Notes: generated by a model not told the origin, from the sequence alone. Shown: positions 22,902-37,929, numbered from the stretch's first letter. The stretch is 64,000 bases of DNA from Bacteroidota bacterium (GCA_030706745.1 JAUZNX010000014.1:9527-73526); one strand, 5' to 3'. Numbers and translations: made by a program.

Positions 22902-23557
22902 TTATCAAGTCCTAGCAAACCACTGCGCCGCGAGGCGCGACCTCACCAAAAGCAACACAGGTGTGGATGGAATGCTCCCTGTTGCCCATAGTATACTCTC
23001 AAATTGCCCTAAAGTCAAGCCTTCGAATTCGATTGTGGATAACTCTCGAATCCATTGAAATGGGAATTGACTAATACGAATACCATTTCTGTCGTACGTT
23101 TCTTTTGGCATGGTAGGATAATGGGAGCGCAAGCGTTTGTGCTTCATGAAGAATGTCCTCCCAATTCTCTAATCGCCATTCCTTCAATTCTTCAAATCTA
23201 GTCTTGAGCCTGACATTTTGTCATTCCACCACCTCAATTTGGGAGCCAAGCGCTTTCCGTTAGCTTGGTGCCTATCAATCTCAGGGTTAATATACGATAC
23301 GATGATGGGATTTGCTACGCACATTCCTCAAGAATGCGATTTTGTTGATCGTATCTCTCGGCGTTTCTGCCCTAATCAGCAATGCCCGATGTGGTCATGG
23401 CTTCCCCCATCGGCGGAGTCACCGTCGGATAATATGCCTAGCCGCACTGGGGCCGACCCCCGGCAGGAGATTATTCGGTAATCACCTTTCGCTATCCCGT
23501 GAACCGGACTTTTTATCCGTCGTAGCCAGTTGGTACGAATACACCCTACTGATCCTG

Positions 23558-24118
23558 ATGAAGCTCTACATAAAATATATGGTCAGCATCCGCTGCAAAC
23601 TTATGGTAAAGGCCGAGTTAGAACGACTCGGCCTTCATCATACGATTGTGGAATTGGGCGAAGTTGAAATCAGCGACATCATTACCCAGCCACAGCGCGT
23701 GGATCTGGCGCTTGCCCTCAAACGCTCCGGGCTGGAATTAATGGACGACAAGAAGGCAATTCTTATCGAGCGGATCAAGAATGTCATAATCGAGTCAATC
23801 CATTATGCGGATGAGGCCCTGAAGGTGAATTTTTCCGAGCACTTGACGCAAAAACTGAATTACGACTACACCTACCTCGCCAATTTGTTTTCTGAAGTCG
23901 AAGGCACGACGATCGAACACTTCATCATCAAACATAAGATCGAACGCGTTAAGGAGTTGCTCGTCTATGATGAACTCTCACTCACCGAAATCGCATACAA
24001 GCTCCATTATAGCAGCGTTGCACATCTTTCGAATCAATTCAAGAAAGTGACCGGCCTGACACCGACCTTTTTCAAGAAAATCAAGCATAAACGATTGGGT
24101 GGTCTCGAGAATGTGTGA
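23558..24118 (+). CDS. Short AraC-family transcriptional regulator (Bacteroidota-type, ~186 aa, MKLYIKYMVSIRCK... N-terminus plus a C-terminal AraC HTH)
   Basis: The C-terminal region LSLTEIAYKLHYSSVAHLSNQFKKVTGLTPTFFKK fits an AraC HTH. The in-frame ATG is at 23558. The stop TGA lies inside the first copy of the repeated cis element. Confidence 0.7.
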   Translation: MKLYIKYMVSIRCKLMVKAELERLGLHHTIVELGEVEISDIITQPQRVDLALALKRSGLELMDDKKAILIERIKNVIIESIHYADEALKVNFSEHLTQKLNYDYTYLANLFSEVEGTTIEHFIIKHKIERVKELLVYDELSLTEIAYKLHYSSVAHLSNQFKKVTGLTPTFFKKIKHKRLGGLENV

Positions 24119-24149
24119 ATGATGTAATAGATTGCTGAAGTTATGTAAT
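24110..24149 (+). promoter_or_regulatory. Conserved 40-bp cis element, copy 1 (AATGTGTGAATGATGTAAT-N15-TGTAAT), 34 bp upstream of the YceI gene
   Basis: Four same-orientation copies share the identical 18-nt core AATGTGTGAATGATGTAA. The TGTAAY second box sits at a fixed +35 offset. Confidence 0.6.
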
Positions 24150-24182
24150 GCTTTTTGATTTTGTTTGTCGTAGATTTGCCCT

Positions 24183-24791
24183 ATGATAAGCGCCCGACAA
24201 AGAAAGCTTGGACAACACATCGCATTTAGCCTCATCCTGACGCTTTCGCTTGCATTTCCACATGTTTTATTCTCGCAGTCAAGCTACAAAGTCGATGGTG
24301 TATCCGAGATCGATTTGAAAGGGACATCGACCCTCCGCGATTGGACAATGATGGCGCATTCTTTCACCGGTTCCGCCCTCTTTACGTTTGCCCCAGATCA
24401 TCAGTTGAGTTCAGTCACAGAGTTTTCGCTGCGCCTGCCAGTCCACAATCTTCGAAGCGAGAGTGCTGAAACGCAAAAGAACGCATACAAAGCCTTGAAG
24501 GATGATCGATACAAAGACATTGTATTCGATCTCACGTCTGCTCAATTCATCCAAAGTGGGCTCGCAAATTACCTGATTCTGCTGCACGGACACTTGACGA
24601 TTGCTGGAGTCACACAGCCCACAACGCTCAAACTTTCTGCGGCGATCAATGAGGACGGCACCATCCTTTGCAGCGGATCGATGCCGGTTTTGTTGTCCGA
24701 CTATGACATCGCACGGCCATCCTTTCTCCTTGGAGCGATGAAGATTGGAGATGTTCTGACGCTCACCTATCGGCTCCTGCTGGTACAATGA
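24183..24791 (+). CDS. YceI-like periplasmic (polyisoprenoid-binding) protein
   Basis: There is a signal peptide and a YceI-like beta-barrel sequence (IDLKGTSTLRDWTM...LKLSAAI). Confidence 0.75.
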   Translation: MISARQRKLGQHIAFSLILTLSLAFPHVLFSQSSYKVDGVSEIDLKGTSTLRDWTMMAHSFTGSALFTFAPDHQLSSVTEFSLRLPVHNLRSESAETQKNAYKALKDDRYKDIVFDLTSAQFIQSGLANYLILLHGHLTIAGVTQPTTLKLSAAINEDGTILCSGSMPVLLSDYDIARPSFLLGAMKIGDVLTLTYRLLLVQ

Positions 24792-24826
24792 TGCCCGTAA
24801 CGACATGATAGCGGTATTCCAACGGT

Positions 24827-24866
24827 AATGTGTGAATGATGTAACATATTGTAGGATTTGTGTAAC
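24827..24866 (+). promoter_or_regulatory. Conserved 40-bp cis element, copy 2
   Basis: The sequence is AATGTGTGAATGATGTAACATATTGTAGGATTTGTGTAAC. It sits ~80-115 bp upstream of the 24948/24981 start. Confidence 0.6.
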
Positions 24867-24947
24867 GCATTTACCATTCGCATTCCGTACCTTTGTAAGC
24901 TCTTCGAATCGTTCGCCGCGAACATGTTGTAGTATTGAATATTTGTT

Positions 24948-26624
24948 GTGGGCGGATGGATTGCCGAAGAAGCACACACAATGACCAGAAGAACCATCAT
25001 CCGGCGACTGCTTTATACACTCGGCTCACTCGCGATCATTCTTTCGCTTGCCACTTGGATTTTTCTCTCATTCTATTTCGAGAAAACACTCAACACTGTC
25101 GTCGTCCCCAAACTCGAACAAGCGACATTCAAGGCGACGCATGGCCGGTTTACCCTGACACTCGATAAGATTTCCTACGCCCATGGGCGGCTGGTCTGCA
25201 ATACATTCATCCTCACGCGAGTGGCGTACGCAGGCGGCGAGCATGGATTGGTACTCGGTCATATGACGCTCGATAGCGCTCGATTCGAAGGAATCAGTTG
25301 GTGGGACGTGCTATGGGGAAATGATTTGGCGCTGACGAGTCTGCAACTCGACGCTCCCCGCGCGTACATGACCAATGCCGATTCCGATATCGTTCTTCCA
25401 CGCATACAGCCTGCAGCTTCGGCTCCTTCCATCTCGAAGATTTCACTCATTTCCTTTGATAGCGTTGTCTTGCGAAATGCCGACGTGTATCTTCCTCAAC
25501 GTGCCGGTAACGCCAGCGAACCAGCCTATCGCAACATCACAGTCTGGCTCACAGATTTTTCGCTCGATCCAAGTCACAAGGTGGTCATTCCCAGTTTATT
25601 TTCCGGCCACGTCGAGTTTAACTTCCCAGGAGGAGACTATCCTATCGGCGATAGCACTTACTCGATCCATGTTCGTGGGATTCACGGGAGTCTGACCGAT
25701 TCTCTCGTCACGATCGATAGCCTGTCCTATCTGCCGAATTACAACGAGCAGGCATTCGCCGATTTACACAAGTACTTTCAGGACCGGTTAGAGTATCGGT
25801 GCAATGGGATTCGCGTTCGCGGAATAGATTTCAGCAAGCTCATGGGATCGGCTGGCCTGTTTGTTCGATTGTTCGAAGTAACCTCCTGGTCGGTTGACTA
25901 CTACGGAGACATGCGAAAAGCGCACAACCCACATCCTGTCGTTGCAGTATTGCCTCACACGATCGTGAATGGAATCACGTCTGCTATCACAATCGACTCA
26001 ATTGTGATGAACAATGGCCACATTCAACATCGAGAGCGCATCGCCGGAAGCACGCACGCAAGTCTGCTGACATTCACGCACGCGCGAGTAACCGCGCATC
26101 CATTCAGTACGGATCACTCCAGCACCTACTATAAGGCGCCGCTGCAAATCAGCGTAAGTGCCCTGTTTCTCGATCAGGCGCGCGTACTGGGTACGATCAT
26201 CTACCCTATTCACGATAGATCATTTAATCTTCATGTCGATGCGACAGTCAGTGCATTCGATTTGACTCGATTAAACTCATACCTGATCTCCAACGAGCGC
26301 AAAGAGATTACCAGTGGGAAGTGTCTTGCCAGCACGCTTTCCATGGATGTTCGATCTGGAACCGCAACCACCACGGTCTGCCCGCGGTATTCGGATGTCT
26401 CGATGAGAGTGCTGGCAACGAATGTGAAAGAGAAACGGGGCTTCATGGAGGGACTAAAGTCCTTCATCGCCAATACCTTTGTGCTTCGAACAAACAATGT
26501 GGACGACGGGAGTTCGAAGGCATTCTCGGGCACCACTACCTACGTTCGGCAGAATACACAAGAGTTTTTCGAGTTTATTTGGCTTGCATTGCGCAAGTCT
26601 ATTCAGAAGGTTGTTGGCTTCTAA
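24948..26624 (+). CDS. Membrane-anchored AsmA/DUF748-like protein (N-terminal TM, then a long beta-rich periplasmic region). An alternative start is 24981.
   Basis: It has a single N-terminal TM (LLYTLGSLAIILSLATWIFLSF), a C-terminal ...EFFEFIWLALRKSIQKVVGF, and no enzymatic motifs. Confidence 0.45.
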   Translation: MGGWIAEEAHTMTRRTIIRRLLYTLGSLAIILSLATWIFLSFYFEKTLNTVVVPKLEQATFKATHGRFTLTLDKISYAHGRLVCNTFILTRVAYAGGEHGLVLGHMTLDSARFEGISWWDVLWGNDLALTSLQLDAPRAYMTNADSDIVLPRIQPAASAPSISKISLISFDSVVLRNADVYLPQRAGNASEPAYRNITVWLTDFSLDPSHKVVIPSLFSGHVEFNFPGGDYPIGDSTYSIHVRGIHGSLTDSLVTIDSLSYLPNYNEQAFADLHKYFQDRLEYRCNGIRVRGIDFSKLMGSAGLFVRLFEVTSWSVDYYGDMRKAHNPHPVVAVLPHTIVNGITSAITIDSIVMNNGHIQHRERIAGSTHASLLTFTHARVTAHPFSTDHSSTYYKAPLQISVSALFLDQARVLGTIIYPIHDRSFNLHVDATVSAFDLTRLNSYLISNERKEITSGKCLASTLSMDVRSGTATTTVCPRYSDVSMRVLATNVKEKRGFMEGLKSFIANTFVLRTNNVDDGSSKAFSGTTTYVRQNTQEFFEFIWLALRKSIQKVVGF

Positions 26625-26653
26625 CGTCCTAAACTACCCTTCGAAAGGATCCA

Positions 26654-26881
26654 ATGGAAACATACCAAAAAACTACCGCGAGCGATGCCGCTGAGCAAGT
26701 GCTTCTCGATGACGAGCCGTATGCAAAACGAAATGCATTCTCCACGTATCGAAGCCGGGCGTTTGAAACCCGCTATGGCATGGAAGTCCCACGGCCCGGC
26801 GAGCGTGAGGATCGCCCGCTCCTGCCTGGTGCAATCGAGTGCGCAGATCCATCCATTAATGATGCCGAACTGAATTGGTGA
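26654..26881 (+). CDS. Small hypothetical protein (75 aa)
   Basis: This ORF sits immediately downstream of the DUF748-like gene. No motifs were found. Confidence 0.3.
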   Translation: METYQKTTASDAAEQVLLDDEPYAKRNAFSTYRSRAFETRYGMEVPRPGEREDRPLLPGAIECADPSINDAELNW

Positions 26882-26917
26882 TGTCGCACTACCAACATTC
26901 GATCAGCCAGAAAGAGC

Positions 26918-26957
26918 AATGTGTGAATGATGTAACACCTTCCTAAAGTTATGTAAT
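26918..26957 (+). promoter_or_regulatory. Conserved 40-bp cis element, copy 3
   Basis: The sequence is AATGTGTGAATGATGTAACACCTTCCTAAAGTTATGTAAT. It sits ~145 bp upstream of the Ser/Thr-rich ORF. Confidence 0.6.
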
Positions 26958-27100
26958 AGTTTTCGACGAATAGTTTCATATCTTTGCAGCGTAGACGAGA
27001 CTCCGGGTTTAACGGCATACATTTATGTCGAACCCATCTCACTGCATCGTCACTTAGAATGCATAATAATGTGTGTTCTTCTATTTATAGAAATATCACA

Positions 27101-27529
27101 ATGAGTAATTCAACGTCAACCCCAATTGTCGATTCCGCATCAGGATTATCCGGCCAGGCCTCTTCAACACCGGGCAGCACGCCGGCCAAATCACCGATAG
27201 GCAGCTCGACATCCACGCCTTCCAGCAGCTCGACATCCACACCTGCCAGCACCTCGACGTCCATGCCTGTCGGCAGCTCACCATCGAAGTCGGTCAGCAC
27301 GTCCCAGAGCCAGCCCTCCGGCAATTCGAATTCACAGCATTCCAGTACTTCGACCTCGAAGCCGGTCAGTACCTCTTCGACAACTTCAGATTCGCGCACA
27401 CAGTCTGGCTTTCAGACGGGCTCCGATTCGCGTCCGACGACAACACCATCTGCAGTTGGCGGCGACCAGCGCAGTGAGTCATCGAGCAATGACGTCGTAA
27501 AGCACAATAAAGTTATTACTGCCGCCTAA
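27101..27529 (+). CDS. Ser/Thr/Pro-rich low-complexity (intrinsically disordered) protein with 24-bp in-frame tandem repeats (SSTSTP units) and no signal peptide
   Basis: The product begins MSNSTSTPIVDSASGLSGQASSTPGSTPAKSPIGSSTSTPSSSSTSTPASTSTS... The DNA repeat cagctcgacatccacNccNNccag occurs x3.5 at 27199-27290. Strand choice is supported by the upstream cis element. Confidence 0.45.
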   Translation: MSNSTSTPIVDSASGLSGQASSTPGSTPAKSPIGSSTSTPSSSSTSTPASTSTSMPVGSSPSKSVSTSQSQPSGNSNSQHSSTSTSKPVSTSSTTSDSRTQSGFQTGSDSRPTTTPSAVGGDQRSESSSNDVVKHNKVITAA

Positions 27530-27631
27530 GCTCCACGTACCGAGCGACCCATGGATGATGTGACCTCTTCTCAAAGCCATGTTGCACATTCATATACGTA
27601 TATACGTATTTCGTTCGCTCGGACCTTGACA

Positions 27632-27677
27632 GGGCTGTCACGGTTAGGCTATATCGCCTAACCGTGACACAATGCCC
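27632..27677. repeat. Near-perfect palindrome (13-bp arms GTCACGGTTAGGC around a TATATC loop, extended by GGGC/GCCC)
   Basis: The sequence reads GGGCTGTCACGGTTAGGCTATATCGCCTAACCGTGACACAATGCCC. It lies between the Ser/Thr-rich gene and the cupin gene, with no T-run. Confidence 0.5.
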
Positions 27678-27861
27678 GTCTCGGTCATTGCCGAGGCGGG
27701 TTGCCTGCCAATAGATTGGAGTATTGGATAGATATGCTAATAATAACAATCATACTGTAATGACACAACACTCTCGGAGCGATAGACATACAACTCCTCA
27801 AGCGCCATCGTCGAATGGCATTCCGAGAGTTGAACGCGAACAATTAGAGCCGTCAAAGGGA

Positions 27862-28167
27862 ATGATCATGGTGGAAATCATCGAATATGTACCGAATGCA
27901 ATCCTGAGTAAAACAATTATTAAGAAATCGACGGGCAATATCAGCATCATGTCGTTCGATACGGGCGAGGGCTTGACAGAGAAGACATCTCCGTTCGATA
28001 CCTTTGCGCAAATCATCGATGGAAAGGCGGAAATTGTTATCGACGGTGTTTCGACCTTACTCGAAACTGGCCACGGCATCATTCTGCCGGCGCATCTGCC
28101 GAACATATTCCGAGCGAACGAACGGTTTAAAATGATCCTGACCGTTATCAAAAGCGGCTATGAATAG
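27862..28167 (+). CDS. Cupin-domain protein (~100 aa)
   Basis: The beta-barrel pattern ...SIMSFDTGEGLTEKTSPFDTFAQIIDGKAEIVIDG...GHGIILPA is typical of cupins. Confidence 0.65.
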   Translation: MIMVEIIEYVPNAILSKTIIKKSTGNISIMSFDTGEGLTEKTSPFDTFAQIIDGKAEIVIDGVSTLLETGHGIILPAHLPNIFRANERFKMILTVIKSGYE

Positions 28168-28210
28168 GCCGCGCATAATCTTTTCAACAATCACTTTTTA
28201 CTAACAGCAT

Positions 28211-28366
28211 ATGGGAAGTCTTTTATATCTTGTTGCCGTAATCCTGATCCTCGCCTGGGCGATCGGATTCATTGGCTTCGGTGCCGGTGGGCTGATTCAC
28301 ATCCTGCTCGTCATCGCAATCATTGCCATTCTGATGCGCATCATCAGTGGCCGTCGGGTTCTCTGA
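28211..28366 (+). CDS. Small 51-aa two-TM membrane protein (lmo0937/DUF5670-like). It is not in the ORF track because it is under 60 aa.
   Basis: The product is MGSLLYLVAVILILAWAIGFIGFGAGGLIHILLVIAIIAILMRIISGRRVL. Its stop overlaps the next start as TGATG. Confidence 0.6.
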   Translation: MGSLLYLVAVILILAWAIGFIGFGAGGLIHILLVIAIIAILMRIISGRRVL

Positions 28367-28650
28367 TGGCCATTCCATTTGATACTAAGAATATGTCACA
28401 CAATAACAACAGCCATCTATTATTCGGACTCATCGCTGGTGCAACGCTCGGCGCGGTTGCAGGCATGTTGTTCTCCCCACACAAGGGAAGCGTGTCGCGA
28501 AGAATTATTCTCCGCAAGGGAGAAGACCTCGCCGATGTGGCACTCGAGACGATCGAGGACCGCATCGAAAAGCTTGGCGACGCACTGAACAAGCATCTTG
28601 AGACATTCACGTCCGATCTGAAATCCCGTTATCGCGAAGTGTGCGGGTGA
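28366..28650 (+). CDS. YtxH-domain (general-stress) protein
   Basis: LLFGLIAGATLGAVAGMLFSPHKGSVSRR is the YtxH signature, followed by a C-terminal helical region. Confidence 0.7.
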   Translation: MAIPFDTKNMSHNNNSHLLFGLIAGATLGAVAGMLFSPHKGSVSRRIILRKGEDLADVALETIEDRIEKLGDALNKHLETFTSDLKSRYREVCG

Positions 28651-28938
28651 AAGCCGCTTCTCGTAAACAGAGCCAATGTCACCATTCGATAGCCCCATTG
28701 GGGCTATCATGCGTTTTGCCGAATCTACGAAGCATTCATATTCCACAACGCTCTCTCCTCTAATGGTCTAATACTCGCAAGAGCGTCGAGAATGCGATCC
28801 CTGGTCGAGAATGCATTCCCTGATGTAACAGGCCCTAATAAACCACAGTATTTGCATTAGGCACGACTATTGCCTCATCACCGAACATGAAGAGCAGCAT
28901 CACGACCGTAATTGGTCATTTCTGGGTCCGCAGCCGCG

Positions 28939-28978
28939 AATGTGTGAATGATGTAACATATACCCAGAGGAGTGTAAC
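28939..28978 (+). promoter_or_regulatory. Conserved 40-bp cis element, copy 4
   Basis: The sequence is AATGTGTGAATGATGTAACATATACCCAGAGGAGTGTAAC. It is the nearest element upstream of the OmpA-family gene (~245 bp). Confidence 0.55.
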
Positions 28979-29224
28979 ACTTTTTGTCTGCCCACTTCGT
29001 AGCTTTGTATCAGAGAGCAGCAACAGTATCTGCTTCTTACACGAAAGACATTGTTCGAGTAGAACCGACGTGAATTAACTGGATGATCAGTCATTCAGCG
29101 TCCAGTCCCTTCGACTTCCGCGAGGCCTTATTTGTAAGCCGCCGTCCTCTGTGAGTGACGGGTAACTCACCTGCACGATTATTTGCCGTGCATGTACTAC
29201 ACTTTTTTTTTACACAATCTAATC

Positions 29225-30451
29225 ATGAAGAATCTAATAAATCGCAGCCTCGCGCTGCTCACTTTGGGTATTATCGGAATCGCAGGATTGAGCCAAACGA
29301 CTCGTGCACAGGATGTCGCTGGCAGAATTGCATTTGGTATCGATGCCGGCGGCAATAAATACTATGGCAACTATACAGATAATCAATTTGCCTTTCATGG
29401 TGATGCGTTTATCCGCTGGAATATCTTCGATTGGTTGTCGTTGCATGCAGCATATAACGGCGGACAGTTGAAGTACAAAGCATCGACGGCGTCGATTGCG
29501 AATGAGGCCGCCCTCTTCCCGAACAGCACTGCCAGCACTGGTACGCTGGGCACCGTCAACCACACTCGGGTCGGAGGATGGGACATCATGGCATCGTACA
29601 ATGTCTTCCCGGATCAGACATTCGTACCCTACGTCATTGCCGGTGTCGAAGCACTGAACTTCGAGCCGAATGATGCGAATGATGCCAACCTGAGAGGCAA
29701 CGCCTCAGCCGCATACAGCAAGAATGTAATTGGTGGCGTGATGGGCGTTGGATTCGAAATGTTCATTTCGCCCAAGGTTACGTTCAACGGCAAGGGCTTG
29801 CTTCATCTAACGGGCACCGATTGGATCGACGACTATTCCAATCCGAATGATTACCGTCAGGATGCATTCGTGACCATGGGTCTCGGATTCAGTTATTACA
29901 TTTTCGCACCTGATGTGGAAGCCGCTCCGGCCCAGGCGGAAGTATCAGAGCGGACGATCATCCATGATATCACAGAAAAGACCGTCTATCACACCGATAC
30001 GATCTTCGTCAAGGACCCGACCGATACCGTCTACATCTCGAATCCAAAGATCAACACGGTCTTCAATTTCCCGGGCACGCTCTTTATCGTGAATACCGAT
30101 CAATTCAATACCGCCGAGCCGAACAATATGGCCAATCTTTACCAGATCAAGCGACTGGTCGAGCAATGCCCAAATCTGAAAGTGGAGATTCAAGGCTTTG
30201 CGAGTGAAGAAGGTACCACGCAGCACAATCAAGAGCTTTCCGAGCGCCGCGCCGCTCGCATCAAGAGCTGGCTCATCGAGCAAGGTGTCAACTCGAATAA
30301 GGTGACACGAACGGTGGGATTCGGAGAGACCAACAATGCAGTCCGCGAACGCTCTGATGTTTCCGCAAAGACCCTTGAAGCCGAGCGTACACAGAACCGA
30401 CGAATTGCAGTGAAGGTCGTTCAGGCCTGCAGCGACGAATCGTCGCGCTAA
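29225..30451 (+). CDS. OmpA-family outer-membrane protein (N-terminal beta-barrel plus C-terminal OmpA peptidoglycan-binding domain)
   Basis: The signal peptide is MKNLINRSLALLTLGIIGIAGLSQTTRAQ. The C-terminal motif is NTAEPNNMANLYQIKRLVEQCPNLKVEIQGFASEEGTTQHNQELSERRAARIKSWL. Confidence 0.8.
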   Translation: MKNLINRSLALLTLGIIGIAGLSQTTRAQDVAGRIAFGIDAGGNKYYGNYTDNQFAFHGDAFIRWNIFDWLSLHAAYNGGQLKYKASTASIANEAALFPNSTASTGTLGTVNHTRVGGWDIMASYNVFPDQTFVPYVIAGVEALNFEPNDANDANLRGNASAAYSKNVIGGVMGVGFEMFISPKVTFNGKGLLHLTGTDWIDDYSNPNDYRQDAFVTMGLGFSYYIFAPDVEAAPAQAEVSERTIIHDITEKTVYHTDTIFVKDPTDTVYISNPKINTVFNFPGTLFIVNTDQFNTAEPNNMANLYQIKRLVEQCPNLKVEIQGFASEEGTTQHNQELSERRAARIKSWLIEQGVNSNKVTRTVGFGETNNAVRERSDVSAKTLEAERTQNRRIAVKVVQACSDESSR

Positions 30452-30484
30452 GAACAACAACTCATCATACAAGGAATTATGAAC

Positions 30485-33214
30485 ATGAAAGACTATACAA
30501 CGTTACGAATGAGAGGGGTATGCGCTATCGCATGCCTCTCCATTCTCTTCTACTTTAGTACGCAAGCCATTGGGCAATTGCGTCCGAATCTTGGCACAGC
30601 ATCGACCTACGCCATATTCACGGGCGGCGGAGCGATTAACGTCGCCACTGGCGACACAGCTGTTCTGACGGGCGATGTCGGTCAGGATGGCGCGTATGCC
30701 TTCAATGGGTTTCCTCCGAGTACTTATACCGGCACGTTGAATCAAAACAACAGCGCATCGGCACTCGCGAAACAAGATCTGATTAGCGCTCAGACGGCCG
30801 ACGGTCTCGTGGCCTGCGGTACGGTGCTCAGCACCACTGTCGTGGACGGACAATCGTTCGATCCTGGCGTCTATTGCTCTGGAGGTGCTACGACGACCGT
30901 CGGGAACATAACATTCAATGCGCATGGCGATGGGACCGCCATCTTTATCGTCAAGATCGGCGGTGCGTTGACCGCGCACTCGACCACGCATATCTTGCTG
31001 TCGAACAACGCGCGCGCGGCCAACATCTATTGGTTCGTCAATGGCCAGGTAACGGTAGCCGATAGCTCGAGCTTCACGGGGACGATTATCGCGAACGGCG
31101 CAATTTCGTTCGCTGGTAAGTCCTCACTCAATGGCAGGGCACTCGTTGCTCCCTTGGGCGCGATTAACTTAGCGGCAAACCACATGTCGATCTCGACCGA
31201 TACGGGTTCGACGGTGAACAATCTTACCGTTGTAAAACCCGCCTCGGGAGATTCAATCCTAAGAAACACGCTCAACGATACGATCCGTTGGACGGGAACA
31301 GGCATCGCACGGGTGAAGACGCTGCAATACTCACTCGACAGCGGGCGAACCTGGAGCACGATTGCTACCATCACGACCGATTCGTTGATGTATCTTTGGC
31401 ACGTTCCAGATACGACCTCGACGAAAGCAATGGTTCGCGTCACCGACACGAACAACTTAAGAGGTGAGAGCAGAATTTTTAAGATCATATCGAATCAGAT
31501 CACCGTCACCCATCCTGCGCTTGCGGAAGTGATCACGGGCGGTACACAAAACTACCAAGTAACCTGGACCGGCACGGGACTTACCAAAAAGAAGATCTTC
31601 GAATATTCGCTCGATAGCGGTCTGACATGGAAGACCATCGGCACCATCTCCGCTGATACATTCGCGTATCGCTGGAATGTTCCGGATACGGCCTCGAAGC
31701 GTGCGATGGTACGCATCACCGATTCGCTTGGGGTTACCGGCAAGAGTGGCCTCTTTACGATCGGATCGAGCAGAATCACCGTGCTGCATCCTGCTTCCGG
31801 AGAGATACTCGCAAGTGGAACACTGAATTACCAGATCACCTGGAGCGGCACGGGACTGACCGCTCGAAAGACGTTTGAGCTATCGCTCGATGGCGGCCTC
31901 ACGTGGAAATTGATCGGCACGCTAACGGCGGATGTGTTCAACTACTATTGGCGCGTTCCGGACACGGCATCGACAATGGCTGTGATTCGCATTACCGATT
32001 CAAATGGTATCTCAGGAAAGAGCAGCATATTTGCGATTCAATCCACCAAGACTCTCATAGTCGTCCGTCCCGTCGCTGGCGAGGTAGTCGCCTCGGGAAT
32101 GCAAGGATATCAGATTACTTGGGCCGGCAACGGACTCACGGCGCAGAAGTCGTTCGAGCTATCGCTCGATGGCGGACTGACCTGGGTATCGATTGGCAGC
32201 ATCTCGGCGGATGTCTTTACCTATTCCTGGAATGTTCCGGATACAGTCTCTTCACAGGCCGTAATCCGTATCACGAACAATAACGGCACAACGTCCGTCT
32301 CCGGTGTGAGCGGGGTCTTTTCGATCCGTCGCAATGTCGGTAGTATTGTCGTCACACATCCAGTTGCCGGAGAAGTCGTCGATGGCGGCTATGTGAACTT
32401 CCCGATTAACTTCACCGCGACGAACGTCACAGCACAAAAGACCTTCGAGTATTCACTCAATGGTGGTGCAACGTGGAGTTTGATTGGCATCATGAACTCG
32501 GACGGACAGAGCTACGCATGGGCGAGCGTGCCTAATGTCGCCACGACGCAAGCACTCGTTCGCATTCGGGATGCCAATGGCATCACCGGAATCAGTGGCC
32601 TCTTCACAATTTCCGTAAAACCGAATATTGGCACGATCAACGAAGTTATTTTGAGTGGGCTCGACAACGCACAAAACATCGGCAACCGTCGTCAGTTGGG
32701 AATTTCCTGGACCTATACGCCCGATATCGGGACATCCGTCGAGGTCGAATACTCGCTCGATTATATGGTCACCTGGAGCCACATTGCAACAGTACCGGTT
32801 ACGGAATCTCCGAACTCCACCGCATGGCTGACCACCGCGTCTGGATATTACAATCCAGTGTTCATTCGCGTCACCAGTTCACTGGGTATGACGAGACTTT
32901 CATCTGCATTCTCGATCGGATCGAGTGCTTCGGTCGCTTCCGAGGCTTCCAAGAATGGATACTCTGTTTCGAACTACCCCAACCCGGCCAGCAGCCAGAC
33001 GACGATCAAGTTGATCCTTCCGGTGCCCAGCGACGTCACGTTGACATTGCTTGACGCACTCGGAAGAGAAGTCGATATGATTGCTTCGGGGCATTTGGGT
33101 GCCGGTTCGGTTGAGATTCCTTTCATTACCGATAAGCTGCTCGCAGGCAACTACATCTATGTATTGCAGGCTGGAGCGACAAGACTCGTCGGTCATCTTA
33201 CTTTAATCAAGTGA
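30485..33214 (+). CDS. Secreted adhesin-like protein with an N-terminal DUF3494 ice-binding-like domain, six ~95-aa tandem beta-sandwich repeats and a T9SS C-terminal sorting domain
   Basis: LGTASTYAIFTGGGAINVATGDTAVLTGDVG matches the IBP/DUF3494 start. The repeats carry Y.W.VPDT.S..A.VRITD. The CTD is NYPNPASSQTTIKL...LLAGNYIYVLQAG. Confidence 0.65.
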   Translation: MKDYTTLRMRGVCAIACLSILFYFSTQAIGQLRPNLGTASTYAIFTGGGAINVATGDTAVLTGDVGQDGAYAFNGFPPSTYTGTLNQNNSASALAKQDLISAQTADGLVACGTVLSTTVVDGQSFDPGVYCSGGATTTVGNITFNAHGDGTAIFIVKIGGALTAHSTTHILLSNNARAANIYWFVNGQVTVADSSSFTGTIIANGAISFAGKSSLNGRALVAPLGAINLAANHMSISTDTGSTVNNLTVVKPASGDSILRNTLNDTIRWTGTGIARVKTLQYSLDSGRTWSTIATITTDSLMYLWHVPDTTSTKAMVRVTDTNNLRGESRIFKIISNQITVTHPALAEVITGGTQNYQVTWTGTGLTKKKIFEYSLDSGLTWKTIGTISADTFAYRWNVPDTASKRAMVRITDSLGVTGKSGLFTIGSSRITVLHPASGEILASGTLNYQITWSGTGLTARKTFELSLDGGLTWKLIGTLTADVFNYYWRVPDTASTMAVIRITDSNGISGKSSIFAIQSTKTLIVVRPVAGEVVASGMQGYQITWAGNGLTAQKSFELSLDGGLTWVSIGSISADVFTYSWNVPDTVSSQAVIRITNNNGTTSVSGVSGVFSIRRNVGSIVVTHPVAGEVVDGGYVNFPINFTATNVTAQKTFEYSLNGGATWSLIGIMNSDGQSYAWASVPNVATTQALVRIRDANGITGISGLFTISVKPNIGTINEVILSGLDNAQNIGNRRQLGISWTYTPDIGTSVEVEYSLDYMVTWSHIATVPVTESPNSTAWLTTASGYYNPVFIRVTSSLGMTRLSSAFSIGSSASVASEASKNGYSVSNYPNPASSQTTIKLILPVPSDVTLTLLDALGREVDMIASGHLGAGSVEIPFITDKLLAGNYIYVLQAGATRLVGHLTLIK

Positions 33215-34814: not shown

Positions 34815-35288
34815 ATGATGCCGAACCCTCTGATTCTTATCCTGGCCGACGATGACAAAGACGATTGCCTCTTCTTCACAGACGCGTTAGGAGAGTTGCC
34901 GGTAACGGCGAACCTCACGACTGTGCATAATGGCGAGCAGCTCATGCAGCTTCTTGCCGATGAGACGGTCGCGCCTCCGCCCCCACACGTTCTGTTCCTC
35001 GATCTGAATATGCCCCGCAAGAATGGCTTTGAATGCCTGGCGGAGATCAAAAGCGACGAACGATTGAGGCAACTTCCCGTCATTATCTTTTCAACCTCAT
35101 TTGAGCAGGACGTCGTGAATTTGCTCTATAAGAAGGGTGCGCACTACTATATCCGAAAGCCAGCCGAATTTGCATTACTTAAAAAAGTAATTTATCAGGC
35201 GCTGCTTCTGGCAACGGAAAATACATCGTTGCAGCCGGCGCAAGAGCACTTTGTTCTCAAAGGAGATTCGGAGGCCGTTCAAATATGA
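34815..35288 (+). CDS. Stand-alone response-regulator receiver (CheY-like) protein
   Basis: ILILADDDKDDCLFF...LFLDLNMPRKNG...VIIFSTS are receiver-domain signatures. Confidence 0.8.
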   Translation: MMPNPLILILADDDKDDCLFFTDALGELPVTANLTTVHNGEQLMQLLADETVAPPPPHVLFLDLNMPRKNGFECLAEIKSDERLRQLPVIIFSTSFEQDVVNLLYKKGAHYYIRKPAEFALLKKVIYQALLLATENTSLQPAQEHFVLKGDSEAVQI

Positions 35289-35830
35289 ATAAAACACCAA
35301 GTATGATGCTCACTACACAAGTTTCTGTTGCCAAGAGTGGCGCGTCGGCCATACCGGGGGCCGCGAACCGAAGTTCGATTCTTCTTGCCGATGACGACAG
35401 GGACGATTGCAACTTTTTTAAGGATGCGTTGGACGAACTGCCGGTAACAGCAGCCCTGACAACCGTGCGTGATGGCGAGCAACTCATGAAGGTACTTGCA
35501 GAAGTAGCCATCGCGCCGCCGTCGCCTTATGTGTTGTTTTTGGATCTTAACATGCCACGGAAGAATGGCTATGACTGTCTGGCGGAGATAAAGCTTGACG
35601 AACGATTACGGCGCATTCCGGTCATTATTTTTTCCACATCCTATGATCCGCGTGTCGTCGACTTGCTCTACACCGTGGGAGCCGACTATTACATTCGGAA
35701 ACCCGCCGACTTTGCGGAACTCAAGAAGGTCATTTATCAAGCGCTGGTGCTTGCGACAAAGGGATACTCTTCGCAGCCGCTGAAAGAGGATTTCGTTCTC
35801 AAGGGAGAATTAGGAACGATACAACAATGA
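35285..35830 (+). CDS. Stand-alone response-regulator receiver protein, a tandem paralogue of the upstream receiver
   Basis: ILLADDDRDDCNFF...LFLDLNMPRKNG is present. It is ~60% identical to the upstream receiver and overlaps it by 4 nt. Confidence 0.8.
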   Translation: MNKTPSMMLTTQVSVAKSGASAIPGAANRSSILLADDDRDDCNFFKDALDELPVTAALTTVRDGEQLMKVLAEVAIAPPSPYVLFLDLNMPRKNGYDCLAEIKLDERLRRIPVIIFSTSYDPRVVDLLYTVGADYYIRKPADFAELKKVIYQALVLATKGYSSQPLKEDFVLKGELGTIQQ

Positions 35831-37929
35831 ATACCGAACGACCAACCCAAACCGCGAACCGATTCCCCTCAGGCGATGCCGCCACCGCTGCAGTCACTTC
35901 GGCGGCTCTCGCATCCGCGGCCGTCGCCAAAGCCGCTGTTGCCACGGTAGAGATGGCTAAGTCCGCCGTTGCAAAAGCTGGTGTTGCCCAAGCAGCGGTC
36001 ACCGAAGCAGCAGTTACGACGATGGGCAACGGAGCCTTCCAACGTGATCGCTTCCGAAGCAAAAAGTCGGATAAGTTAATCATTGCGAACAAGGAGCTTG
36101 CGTTTCAGAATGATGAGAAGGAGAAGCGGGCGGCAGAGCTGATCATTGCAAACAAAGAGCTTGCATTCCAAAACAAGGAAAAGGCGAAACGGGCAGCCGA
36201 GTTGCGGATCGCGAACAAGGAGCTTGCATTCCAGAACGATGAAAAGGAAAAGCGTGCGGCCGAGTTGGGGATTGCGAACAAAGAGCTTGCCTATCAGGAT
36301 GAGGAGAAGGAGAAGCGAGCGGCCGAACTCAATATCGCGAACAAAGAGCTTGCCTTCCAAAATAAAGAGAAGGAGAAGCGGGCCGCCGAGCTGAGCATTG
36401 CGAACAAGGAACTCGCATTTCAGAACGATCAAAAGGAAAAACGCGCGGAAGAGCTCGTCGTTGCAAATAAGGAACTTGCTTACCAAAATCAGGTCAAGGA
36501 AAAACGAGCCGCAGAGTTAGTGGTTGCCAACGATGAGCTTGCATTCCAGAATAAGGAAAAGGAGAAGCGAGCCGCGGAACTCGCCATTGCCAATATTGAA
36601 CTCGCATTTCAAAATGACGAGAAGGAGAAGAGGGCAGCGGAATTAGGTGTTGCCAACCAGGAGCTCGCATTCCAAAATGAAGAGAAAGAAAAGCGAGCGG
36701 CTGAGTTACGGATTGCGAACAAGGAGCTCGCCTTCCAAAACAAAGAAAAGGAAAAGCGTGCGGCGGAATTGAGTATTGCGAATAAAGAGCTGGCGTTTCA
36801 AAACGATCAGAAGGAGAAGCGAGCCGGGGAGTTGGTAGTTGCGAATAAGGAACTCGCCGTACAAAATCAGGTGAAGGAAAAGCGCGCGGCAGAGCTCAAC
36901 GTCGCCAATATCGAGCTCGCCTTCCAAAACCATGAGAAGGAAAAACGGGCGGCAGAGCTTAATATTGCGAATATTGAGCTTGCCTACCAAAACGATGAAA
37001 AAGAAAAGCGGGCGGCGGAGCTAAGCGTTGCAAACGAGGAACTTGCTTTCCAGAACAATGAAAAGGAGAAGCGAGCGGAAGAGCTGAGCATAGCCAATAA
37101 GGAGCTGGCCTTTCAAAACGACGAGAAAGAAAAACGCGCGGCGGAGCTCATTGTCGCCAATAAGGAACTGGCCTTCCAAAACGACGAAAAAGAGAAGCGC
37201 GCCGAAGAATTGAGCATCGCAAACAAAGAGTTGCTGGCTTTTACATACGTGTCGAGCCATGACTTGCAGGAGCCGCTACGGAAGATACAGACCTTCGTGA
37301 GCCGGATCAGCGACAACGAGGATGCGAACCTTACTGATAAAGGTCGTGACTATTTCCACCGAATCCAAGAAGCCGCGAAGCGGATGCAAACCCTGATTGA
37401 AGACCTGCTTGCATTTTCTCGCGTCAATACAGCTGAACGAATATTCGTCAACACCGATCTTAACATTATTATCGAAGAAGTAAAGACCGAACTGAAGGAC
37501 ACCATAGATGAAAAGCGGGCGACCATTGATGTCACAGAAGTGTGCCCGGCTAATGTCATTCGGTTTCAGTTTCGTCAGTTGATGCTCAATCTCGTCGGCA
37601 ACGCGCTTAAATTCTCAGATCCTCAGATCCCACCCCACATCATTATCACGAGCAAGATTGAAACCGGCAGTCAGTTGAACAACGAGAAGCTCTCTTCTGA
37701 AAAACAATATTGTCACATCACAGTCACCGACAACGGGATCGGCTTTGAGCCCAAGTTCAACGATCGCATTTTTGAGGTATTCCAAAAACTTCACGACAAA
37801 GAAGAATATGCCGGTACCGGCATTGGGCTGGCTATTGTGAAGAAAATCGTTGAGAACCATAATGGGATCATCACCGCAACGAGCGAACTCAACAAGGGCG
37901 CGCGATTCGATATTTATATACCGGCATAA
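35827..37929 (+). CDS. Sensor histidine kinase (HisKA + HATPase_c) whose N-terminal region consists of an Ala-rich segment plus ~18.5 tandem 22-aa coiled-coil repeats (ELxIANKELAFQNxEKEKRAAE)
   Basis: The H-box is LAFTYVSSHDLQEPLRKI. The ATPase motifs are VGNALKFS, DNGIGF and GTGIGLAIV. No PAS/GAF or periplasmic sensor domain is seen. Confidence 0.85.
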   Translation: MNTERPTQTANRFPSGDAATAAVTSAALASAAVAKAAVATVEMAKSAVAKAGVAQAAVTEAAVTTMGNGAFQRDRFRSKKSDKLIIANKELAFQNDEKEKRAAELIIANKELAFQNKEKAKRAAELRIANKELAFQNDEKEKRAAELGIANKELAYQDEEKEKRAAELNIANKELAFQNKEKEKRAAELSIANKELAFQNDQKEKRAEELVVANKELAYQNQVKEKRAAELVVANDELAFQNKEKEKRAAELAIANIELAFQNDEKEKRAAELGVANQELAFQNEEKEKRAAELRIANKELAFQNKEKEKRAAELSIANKELAFQNDQKEKRAGELVVANKELAVQNQVKEKRAAELNVANIELAFQNHEKEKRAAELNIANIELAYQNDEKEKRAAELSVANEELAFQNNEKEKRAEELSIANKELAFQNDEKEKRAAELIVANKELAFQNDEKEKRAEELSIANKELLAFTYVSSHDLQEPLRKIQTFVSRISDNEDANLTDKGRDYFHRIQEAAKRMQTLIEDLLAFSRVNTAERIFVNTDLNIIIEEVKTELKDTIDEKRATIDVTEVCPANVIRFQFRQLMLNLVGNALKFSDPQIPPHIIITSKIETGSQLNNEKLSSEKQYCHITVTDNGIGFEPKFNDRIFEVFQKLHDKEEYAGTGIGLAIVKKIVENHNGIITATSELNKGARFDIYIPA
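36070..37245 (+). repeat. About 18.5 tandem 66-bp in-frame repeats inside the histidine-kinase gene, with a higher-order duplication (units 5-7 nearly equal units 11-13)
   Basis: The protein repeats were counted directly. Both strands show repeat-shadow ORFs. Confidence 0.8.

Follow-up and report, generated by a model that had tools for sequence, protein, structure and literature searches.

The activators of the AraC/XylS family that come closest to the system described here, namely AraC at araI1-I2 (pBAD), XylS at Pm and RhaS-RhaR, act by class II activation on two direct half-sites of approximately 17-19 bp with a periodicity of 21 bp. In this geometry, a strong and better conserved distal half-site is followed 21 bp downstream by a weaker proximal one, which abuts or overlaps the -35 region at the polymerase, and the upstream promoter element is missing. 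In Bacteroidota, the housekeeping sigma factor reads a promoter made of a -7 element, TAnnTTTG, and a -33 element, TTTG. A stretch of 64,000 nucleotides (nt) from a Bacteroidota bacterium (GCA_030706745.1, JAUZNX010000014.1:9527-73526), called the window below and numbered from its first letter, carries four copies of an element of approximately 70 bp next to the gene for an AraC-type regulator of 186 amino acids (aa). The four repeats are best read as promoters in which a two-part regulator site is joined to the Bacteroidota start signal. Given the geometry of the site, the fold of the regulator and its genomic linkage to the element, it is probable that the regulator binds these sites in tandem and activates the sigma-A promoters of a stress-like regulon.

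The locus resembles the AraC, XylS and RhaS systems in the two direct half-sites, the predicted place of the proximal half-site, the stronger conservation of the distal one, the C-terminal domain with two helix-turn-helix motifs, and the adjacency of regulator gene and targets. It differs from them in having a Bacteroidota promoter (-7 TAnnTTTG, with no -10/-35), a 65-aa HMA-like N-terminal domain in place of their cupin or sugar-binding domain, dozens of dispersed putative targets of stress and envelope type in place of one catabolic operon, and a first putative operator that is embedded in the stop codon of the regulator itself. MarA, SoxS and Rob are also small AraC-type proteins with a dispersed multi-gene stress regulon, a feature that the present regulator would share, and with an asymmetric site of approximately 20 bp in which two recognition elements lie one helical turn apart. 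However, MarA and SoxS are monomers, and their marboxes are degenerate, may face either way and lie at differing distances. The present site has two parts, hardly varies and keeps a rigid phase, and the regulator has an extra N-terminal domain.

Sequence, conservation and register of the element

The core of the element, the 18-mer AATGTGTGAATGATGTAA, is found at 24110, 24827, 26918 and 28939, always on the + strand and with no mismatch, exactly as an earlier note on this DNA had claimed. No further core site was found in the 64 kb with up to three mismatches tolerated. The chance expectation is 0.03 matches, and four or more matches were reached in none of 100 shuffles; a chance origin of the four exact copies is excluded. 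The ungapped alignment of the copies runs over approximately 70 nt, while their flanks show no relation to one another. The 40-bp element of the earlier note is therefore real, but its conservation reaches further and includes a TAnnTTTG box. Counting from 0, the core occupies offsets 0-17 and is followed by a pyrimidine at 18, an A at 19, a second box TGTAA(C/T) at 34-39, a T-run at 43-46 and TAnnTTTG at 61-68. The second box starts at 24144, 24861, 26952 and 28973, and since it occupies the same offsets in all four copies, the length of the spacer is constant; the fixed offset claimed before stands, and the spacer of 14-15 nt becomes one of 14 nt after 'YA' in every copy. The combination GTAAY-N19-23-TAnnTTTG was not found outside the four copies on either strand of the window. 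The GC content of the element is 32-40% versus 52.8% for the window, in agreement with the AT-richness previously ascribed to the DNA that carries it. The copies, and one doubtful relic, are as follows.

24110..24178, + strand: copy 1; distal part 24110-24128, proximal TGTAAT 24144-24149, -7 box TAGATTTG 24171-24178, predicted +1 at 24183
24827..24895, + strand: copy 2; distal part 24827-24845, proximal TGTAAC 24861-24866, -7 box TACCTTTG 24888-24895, predicted +1 at about 24900
26918..26986, + strand: copy 3; distal part 26918-26936, proximal TGTAAT 26952-26957, -7 box TATCTTTG 26979-26986, predicted +1 at about 26991
28939..29007, + strand: copy 4; distal part 28939-28957, proximal TGTAAC 28973-28978, -7 box TAGCTTTG 29000-29007, predicted +1 at about 29012
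27546..27614, + strand: putative fifth copy in degenerate form, upstream of the cupin gene, GACCCATGGATGATGTGACCTCTTCTCAAAGCCATGTTGC...CGTATTTCG, composite score 16/25

A scan of related genomes, which the earlier note had proposed as a check, was performed with one genome per species and the pattern TGTGAATNNTGTAAY-N15-TGTAA. It gave at least 120 stretches of 8 kb; those listed are nearly all from Bacteroidota, and two of them come from isolates. The groups among the listed stretches are Bacteroidales, Chitinophagales, Flavobacteriales, Cytophagales, Saprospiraceae, Lentimicrobiaceae and Prolixibacteraceae, and all counts cover retrievable loci rather than whole genomes. A composite score applied to the fetched loci, with shuffles as control, identified 406 unique instances, compared with none in the shuffles. 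As to where they lie, no more than 9 of 417 instances (2%) are found for the most part within an open reading frame (ORF) of at least 120 aa, versus 74% of random positions, and the -7 box is separated from the first ATG-opened ORF by a median of 43 nt. This is contrary to the generic, randomly scattered repeat that the earlier note had named as the outcome that would speak against a regulon.

The matrix of the 406 instances has its information inflated at the positions used for selection, and for this reason two checks with independent selection were made. Among 161 instances selected without the -7 box, 46 have TAnnTTTG at offset 61 and 3 have it at offset 60, with 2 stray matches elsewhere. 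Among 140 instances selected by the distal core only, in loci chosen by protein, TGTAA lies exactly at offset 34 in 112 and A62 together with TTT65-67 is present in 105, with no core hits in the shuffles. The identity of the 18 nt reflects a distal site that is strongly conserved throughout the Bacteroidota sampled, and not a peculiarity of the source genome. Two motif-bearing contigs are assigned to bins outside this phylum, L019 (Polyangiaceae) and L082 (Woesearchaeota). Given that L019 also encodes a regulator homologue with 62% identity, both are probably misbinned Bacteroidota contigs.

The earlier note had divided the element into three direct half-sites with 9- and 21-bp spacing. Direct repetition at 21 bp holds across the 406 instances, and the element is better described as AATnRTGTAAC present twice, as AATnATGTAAC at offsets 8-18 and AATTRTGTAAC at 29-39. 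The distal repeat is extended on its 5' side by AATGTGTG, giving AATGTGTGAATnATGTAAC at approximately -73 to -55. Offsets 29-33 (A A T T R) mirror offsets 8-12 though they lie outside the selection criteria, and the tandem direct half-sites, approximately 21 bp apart, are of the araI1-I2 kind. Inside the distal site, about 10 bp or one helical turn separates TGTG (offsets 4-7) from TGTAA (13-17), as expected of a site for the two helix-turn-helix units in a single AraC-type DNA-binding domain. The positions that were not scored and are nonetheless conserved are A0, T2, T19, T22-23, A29-A30, T31-T32, C39, T43, C64 and G68. In the AT-richer relatives L001 and L002, the entire 40 bp, including the spacer CTTTTTTCTAAAATTT, is near-identical among the copies within a genome, whereas in the window conservation is limited to the boxes. 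The T-tract/A-tract spacer may contribute to DNA bending.

The start-site map of Flavobacterium psychrophilum places TAnnTTTG, the sigma-A box, from -12 to -5 (PMC9723704). Applying this register to the element sets the predicted start at offset 73, the distal core at -73 to -55 and the second TGTAAY at -39 to -34. All four copies in the window carry the -7 element at one fixed position, as in a Bacteroidota sigma-A promoter. In contrast with such a promoter, TTTG was not found at -33 in these copies: the offsets corresponding to -36 to -33 read AAC(a), with TGTAAY filling the region, and the canonical upstream promoter element is therefore missing. The proximal box ends 21 nt ahead of the -7 box, which corresponds to approximately -34 if the Flavobacterium register holds. 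For copy 1, the predicted +1 at 24183 is the A of the ATG of the YceI-like gene, an ORF with no alternative start, and the mRNA of this gene would therefore be leaderless. An ATG that opens an ORF falls on offset 73 in 5 of 382 instances, the highest count among offsets 68-80, which lends modest support to the start register. The motif had no match in the F. psychrophilum promoter table, in which the tabulated sequences are too short to hold the distal core (PMC9723704).

Two traces of further copies were seen in the window. The hit at 27546-27614, between the Ser/Thr-rich ORF and the cupin gene, has a score at chance level (about three such hits are expected per window) and an imperfect -7 box, TATTTCG; its unscored positions also resemble copy 3, and it is possibly a decayed fifth copy. 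This possible relic apart, the composite scan found only chance-level hits elsewhere in the window. At 28785-28829, a 19-nt tandem duplication, GTCGAGAATGCNATCCCTG, is present in two copies and terminates in a pseudo-core, AATGCATTCCCTGATGTAAC, which agrees with the core at 14 of 19 positions with an insertion of 1 nt. The pseudo-core is preceded by GTCGAG, comparable with the CTCGAG at the 3' end of the regulator gene. This stretch lies approximately 110 nt upstream of copy 4, and it may be what is left of a duplication of the regulator end and operator.

The adjacent regulator and its linkage to the element

23558..24118, + strand: regulator gene, 186 aa; HMA-like N-terminal domain, linker helix and AraC/XylS domain with two helix-turn-helix motifs; stop codon inside copy 1

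The regulator is assigned to the AraC/XylS family by Pfam (HTH_18, 7.9e-17, 61.8 bits versus a cut-off of 33.6; HTH_AraC, 9.2e-10, 38.9 bits versus 26.6), and its C-terminal region of approximately 100 aa contains the two helix-turn-helix motifs of this family. The AlphaFold2 model (mean confidence, pLDDT, of 88) has a beta-alpha-beta-beta-alpha-beta fold at residues 1-62, a long helix at 65-83 and a seven-helix AraC DNA-binding domain at 92-180. With Foldseek, the DNA-binding domain matches YesN, AraT, MarA, SoxS, Rob, AraC and AdpA, with template modelling (TM) scores of 0.75-0.82 to the corresponding domains of YesN, MarA, AraC and SoxS. The N-terminal domain (residues 1-65) gives weaker matches to the metallochaperones CopZ, GolB and Atx1 (TM approximately 0.64-0.69, E approximately 0.1). 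The MTCxxC motif of HMA domains is degenerate in the regulator (M8-V-S-I-R-C13), with Ser at the position of the first Cys and an invariant second one, Cys13. The HMA-like domain with its single invariant cysteine is likely a module for dimerisation and/or signal sensing.

The regulator falls in none of the named and characterised subfamilies (AraC, XylS, RhaS, MarA, SoxS, etc.): all 22 NCBIfam hits lie far below their cut-offs, the best being AryK with 50 bits versus 850, and matches to sequences in the PDB are confined to the DNA-binding domain. It is 100% identical to a protein of 'MAG: Bacteroidota bacterium', and the best 120 homologues are 72-87% identical; the few with a named source come from Ignavibacteriota, Kapabacteria, Chitinophagaceae and Bacteroidia. 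A search at E<=1e-30 of a library clustered at 50% identity yielded 481 representatives, mostly full-length at approximately 186 aa. This high conservation of the regulator parallels that of the near-invariant site. The homologues fall in two C-terminal classes: those ending in ...LENV or ...ENM have their stop codon inside the motif, while those ending in ...IEDI(GN), often followed by kinase-like genes, have a stop codon without it. Some loci among L024, L026, L040, L069 and a further set hold two or three regulator paralogues.

The stop codon of the regulator gene (TGA, 24116-24118) falls within the core of copy 1, as had been noticed earlier. Three orthologous loci fetched by protein have 4, 9 and 8 copies of the element within 10 kb, and in each of them copy 1 lies over the stop codon of the regulator, where ...CTCGAGAATGTGTGA encodes L-E-N-V-stop. 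Together with 80 loci from a metagenome scan, these make up 83 loci selected by protein alone, and the motif is present in 71 of them. The overlap with the stop codon occurs in exactly the register of the window in 38 of the 77 loci with enough 3' sequence, and in about 12 more of these the motif lies at most 110 nt downstream of the stop codon. Several of the protein-selected loci hold divergent copies. When loci are chosen by the motif instead, a regulator homologue is encoded in 24 of the 120 listed stretches of 8 kb, and two or three paralogues in some of these. The isolate Lacihabitans sp. LS3-19 (L072) has both the regulator gene and the motif. In a census of 150 downstream ORFs (see below), proteins with HTH_18 are themselves the targets in 11. 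The earlier proposal of a local regulon next to an AraC regulator is sustained with respect to the linkage, but the regulon is not only local.

In nine of the 83 loci, a co-oriented copy is found approximately 110-240 nt upstream of the start of the regulator itself, which suggests that the regulator is autoregulated in some genomes. In the window, unlike in these nine loci, no motif copy is present ahead of the regulator gene in 22902-23557, a gap of approximately 650 nt without a convincing ORF that separates it from a divergent gene for a TPR protein. For this reason, the regulator of the window is not obviously autoregulated.

Proposed tandem activation and the competing readings

In the mechanism proposed, the housekeeping sigma factor of Bacteroidota would read each copy as a promoter that depends on an activator, with the 40-bp bipartite site in the place of the -33 element and further upstream. 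Two protomers of the 186-aa regulator would bind in tandem to the two direct repeats AATnRTGTAAC, 21 bp or two helical turns apart. The proximal repeat would end at approximately -34, its protomer would abut RNA polymerase, and dispersed envelope and stress-type genes would be switched on. Of this picture, the motif with its rigid phasing to the -7 box, its intergenic position close to genes, its conservation in the Bacteroidota sampled, its linkage to the regulator family, the fold of the regulator and the recurring target families are observed, whereas binding by this particular protein, activation as opposed to repression, stoichiometry, start sites, inducing signal and a physiological role in stress are inferred. 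Of the two possibilities raised in the earlier note, an AraC-type operator or an ECF-type promoter, an activator site joined to a sigma-A -7 box is favoured over the latter, in which the expected CGT is not conserved.

Several points weigh against this mechanism. In 96 of the 120 listed motif-selected stretches there is no regulator gene within 8 kb, and about half of the regulator homologues, those of the ...IEDI class, have no motif at the stop codon. The linkage between element and regulator is strong but correlative. The inflation of the matrix was mentioned above, and the calling of downstream ORFs was crude, each being taken from the first ATG that yields at least 45-50 aa. The label 'stress' is taken entirely from the names of protein families. 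Finally, the distal core in the window reads TGTGA-N6-TAACA, which agrees with TGTGA-N6-TCACA at 9 of 10 positions and has its centre at -61.5 relative to the predicted start, where a CRP-type dimer of class I classically sits.

This last point leads to the reading in which the promoter architecture is the same and another factor, a Crp/Fnr-type dimer or a response regulator, occupies the upstream site, while the AraC gene would be no more than a gene that often belongs to the regulon or lies beside it. The recurrence of receiver-domain proteins and histidine kinases as targets fits this reading, and a receiver-receiver-kinase set lies 6 kb downstream in the window; likewise, the regulator gene itself is a target in some genomes. 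Nonetheless, the inverted TGTGA-N6-TCACA with a free spacer that defines a CRP/FNR operator is not what the 406 instances present. They lack dyad symmetry, position 16 is A in 99% of them where C is needed, the would-be spacer is conserved (T13 in 98%, G14 in 89%), and the proximal TGTAAC box is direct rather than inverted. In addition, no cNMP-binding family appears among the 25 families of the neighbourhood census, and the overlap of the motif with the stop codon of the AraC gene, in one and the same register in 38 of 77 loci, is difficult to account for unless the two are functionally connected. A different factor on the site is for these reasons considered improbable.

It is also possible that the AraC-type protein binds the site and mainly represses, or acts in both ways as some members of the family do, on promoters that are constitutively competent. 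A -7 box near consensus in all four copies would be in line with this. On the other hand, the site is wholly upstream of the -7 box, ending at approximately -34, and it replaces the -33 element and leaves the start site uncovered, a geometry that is textbook AraC/XylS/RhaS activation. Repression or dual action is therefore given a slightly lower probability than a different factor.

A promoter for an alternative sigma factor of the extracytoplasmic function (ECF) type, with TGTAAC as -35 and CGTA as -10, has in its favour that CGTA directly precedes the T-rich box in three of the four window copies, that GTAAC is similar to ECF -35 elements, and that genes for ECF sigma factors are among the targets. 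However, CGT is not conserved across the 406 instances (C59 in 46%; position 60 is T in 41%, C in 26% and G in 22%), and the conserved signal is A62 with T65-67(G68), which is the sigma-A -7 box. The spacing from AAC to CGT is 19 nt, compared with the 16-17 nt usual between the -35 and -10 of ECF promoters, so that a CGT -10 at the expected distance is not what is found. The far more conserved distal 19-mer at -73 to -55 would also be left unexplained. An ECF promoter is thus very unlikely.

Least credible of all is a non-regulatory repeat or RNA-level element, be it a mobile or REP-like (repetitive extragenic palindromic) repeat, a structured 5' RNA or a site targeted by dCas12f with an ECF sigma factor in RNA-guided transcription, even though an exact identity of 18 nt is unusual for protein-binding sites. 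The copies are intergenic (2% in ORFs versus 74%), always in fixed phase to the -7 box and with unrelated flanks, and they are conserved across many Bacteroidota lineages and not within one genome, which speaks against a mobile or REP-like repeat. A structured RNA is disfavoured by folding z-scores of 0.15, -1.58, 0.55 and 0.68 with no shared fold, and the elements had no Rfam match at the gathering score or at E<=1. RNA-guided transcription with starts at a fixed distance does exist in Bacteroidetes, but it works without promoter motifs (PMC13472631). No Cas12f/TnpB-like gene was found among the larger ORFs of the window, and this candidate was rejected.

Target genes and the putative regulon

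In agreement with the earlier note, each copy of the element lies ahead of a gene on the + strand. The genes that follow the four copies are listed below.

24183..24791, + strand: YceI-like gene, target of copy 1 (Pfam YceI, 4.7e-09)
24948 or 24981..26624, + strand: membrane-anchored protein of 547-558 aa, target of copy 2, no Pfam hit
26654-26881: ORF of 75 aa after the 547-558 aa gene
26984..28650, + strand: putative operon of copy 3 (Ser/Thr-rich ORF, cupin, DUF5670, YtxH)
26984-27529, + strand: Ser/Thr-rich ORF, first gene after copy 3
27724/27760-28167, + strand: cupin gene (Pfam Cupin_2, E 0.0016, 18.6 bits, under the 27.2-bit cut-off)
28211-28366, + strand: DUF5670 gene (Pfam DUF5670)
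28366-28650, + strand: YtxH gene (Pfam YtxH)
28688-28708: terminator-like hairpin that closes the copy 3 unit
29183..30451, + strand: OmpA-family gene, target of copy 4 (Pfam OmpA, 2.7e-16)
30479-33214, + strand: ice-binding-like gene, 27 nt after the OmpA gene (Pfam Ice_binding, 1e-27)

The AsmA/DUF748 label that had been given to the target of copy 2 was not borne out, as that protein had no Pfam hit; a similar protein of 549 aa also follows a motif copy in L001. In L001 and L002, too, YceI genes are found around the regulator, in surroundings that are rich in the motif. No named NCBIfam family was found for the 547-aa, Ser/Thr-rich, 75-aa ORF and 426-aa proteins. The OmpA and ice-binding-like genes likely form the transcription unit of copy 4 (29183..33214). 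From the predicted start of copy 4 to the start codon of the OmpA gene there would be a leader of approximately 170-215 nt (29008-29225), in which no Rfam match was found; the representative of an 18-member cluster of OmpA-type targets elsewhere also has a long gap, of 281 nt. The Ser/Thr-rich ORF contains a 24-nt tandem repeat of 3.3 copies (27201-27279).

Further downstream in the window, two stand-alone receiver genes (34815-35288 and 35285-35830) precede a histidine kinase gene (35827-37929). In other genomes, genes of both these kinds are themselves direct targets of the motif. The kinase gene contains, at 36081-37234, about 18 tandem units of 63 nt encoding a 21-aa repeat, IANKELAFQNxEKEKRAAEL, N-terminal to HisKA, which probably accounts for the spike in AT-skew at 36-38 kb. 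The rest of the window is ordinary chromosome of an organism bearing a type IX secretion system (T9SS), with HPr kinase, aconitase, a MiaB-like enzyme and several Por_Secre_tail proteins.

A census of the targets was obtained by clustering the first downstream ORFs and searching 150 of these with Pfam. Besides HTH_18 (11), the families found were Ice_binding (11, often with T9SS tails), DUF5670 (7), Cupin_2 (7), CsbD (6), OmpA (5), PAP2 (4) and Response_reg (3), followed by M48, DUF6600, YtxH, ECF sigma, DUF748 and histidine kinase (2 each) and by single hits to DUF892, KaiC and MlaE. LEA_2, SHOCT, PPK2, P-type ATPase and bacterioferritin are further families seen in the neighbourhoods and clusters. 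The window's own genes closely fit this list, and the likeness to a general-stress gene set that the earlier note had pointed out recurs elsewhere, with CsbD, YtxH, DUF5670, OmpA and cupin genes downstream of the element.

Among known systems, these targets come close to the general-stress regulons of sigma-B in Firmicutes and of RpoS and EcfG/PhyR in Proteobacteria, and in content they overlap with the sigma-B type through CsbD, YtxH, DUF5670 (lmo0937-like), OmpA-like, cupin, DUF892, bacterioferritin and LEA_2. In contrast with those systems, an activator acting with the housekeeping sigma factor is proposed here in place of an alternative sigma factor, and the stress role is read from gene content. 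We know of no general-stress regulator in Bacteroidota and of no counterpart there of sigma-B, RpoS or EcfG.

No prior description of the regulator or of the motif was found in the full-text literature searched, in which most subscription journals are missing, or in NCBIfam or Rfam. The mechanism class is already known, while the regulator subfamily, the operator fused to a Bacteroidota promoter with its first copy in a stop codon, and the widely conserved stress-like regulon appear undescribed in this material. In F. psychrophilum, a 179-aa AraC-family gene, THC0290_1150, stands in one list with a 64-aa ORF, a hybrid kinase and many neighbours of unknown function (PMC9723704). This list seems to be the set with 'low expression in all samples' (PMC9723704), and the gene is taken here as a lead only. 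If THC0290_1150 is orthologous, the regulon may be silent in standard conditions.

As a tentative extension, to be held with more doubt than the mechanism itself, the regulator and its 40-bp site could act as master switch for a response of the general stress, dormancy or survival type that is shared across Bacteroidota, including Ignavibacteria-/Kapabacteria-like lineages. It would work through an activator with the housekeeping sigma factor and would sense redox state or metals by the degenerate HMA domain with its single invariant cysteine. Under laboratory conditions, such a regulon may for the most part stay silent, and this would explain the lack of a prior description.

Bacteroidota are dominant in soils, waters, sediments and guts. 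For this phylum, the finding offers a near-invariant 40-bp cis-code rigidly coupled to the promoter type of the phylum itself, a candidate regulator with 72-87% identity among the homologues sampled, and a set of recurrent targets (ice-binding-like, CsbD, YtxH, DUF5670, OmpA, cupin, bacterioferritin, LEA_2 and two-component proteins). Taken together, these make the question of a general stress response in Bacteroidota directly testable; a pattern scan suffices to read the regulon from any genome. The element could also serve Bacteroidota genetics as a portable and tightly controlled promoter. Should the link to the regulator fail, the motif would still mark a large, conserved and unexplained regulon.

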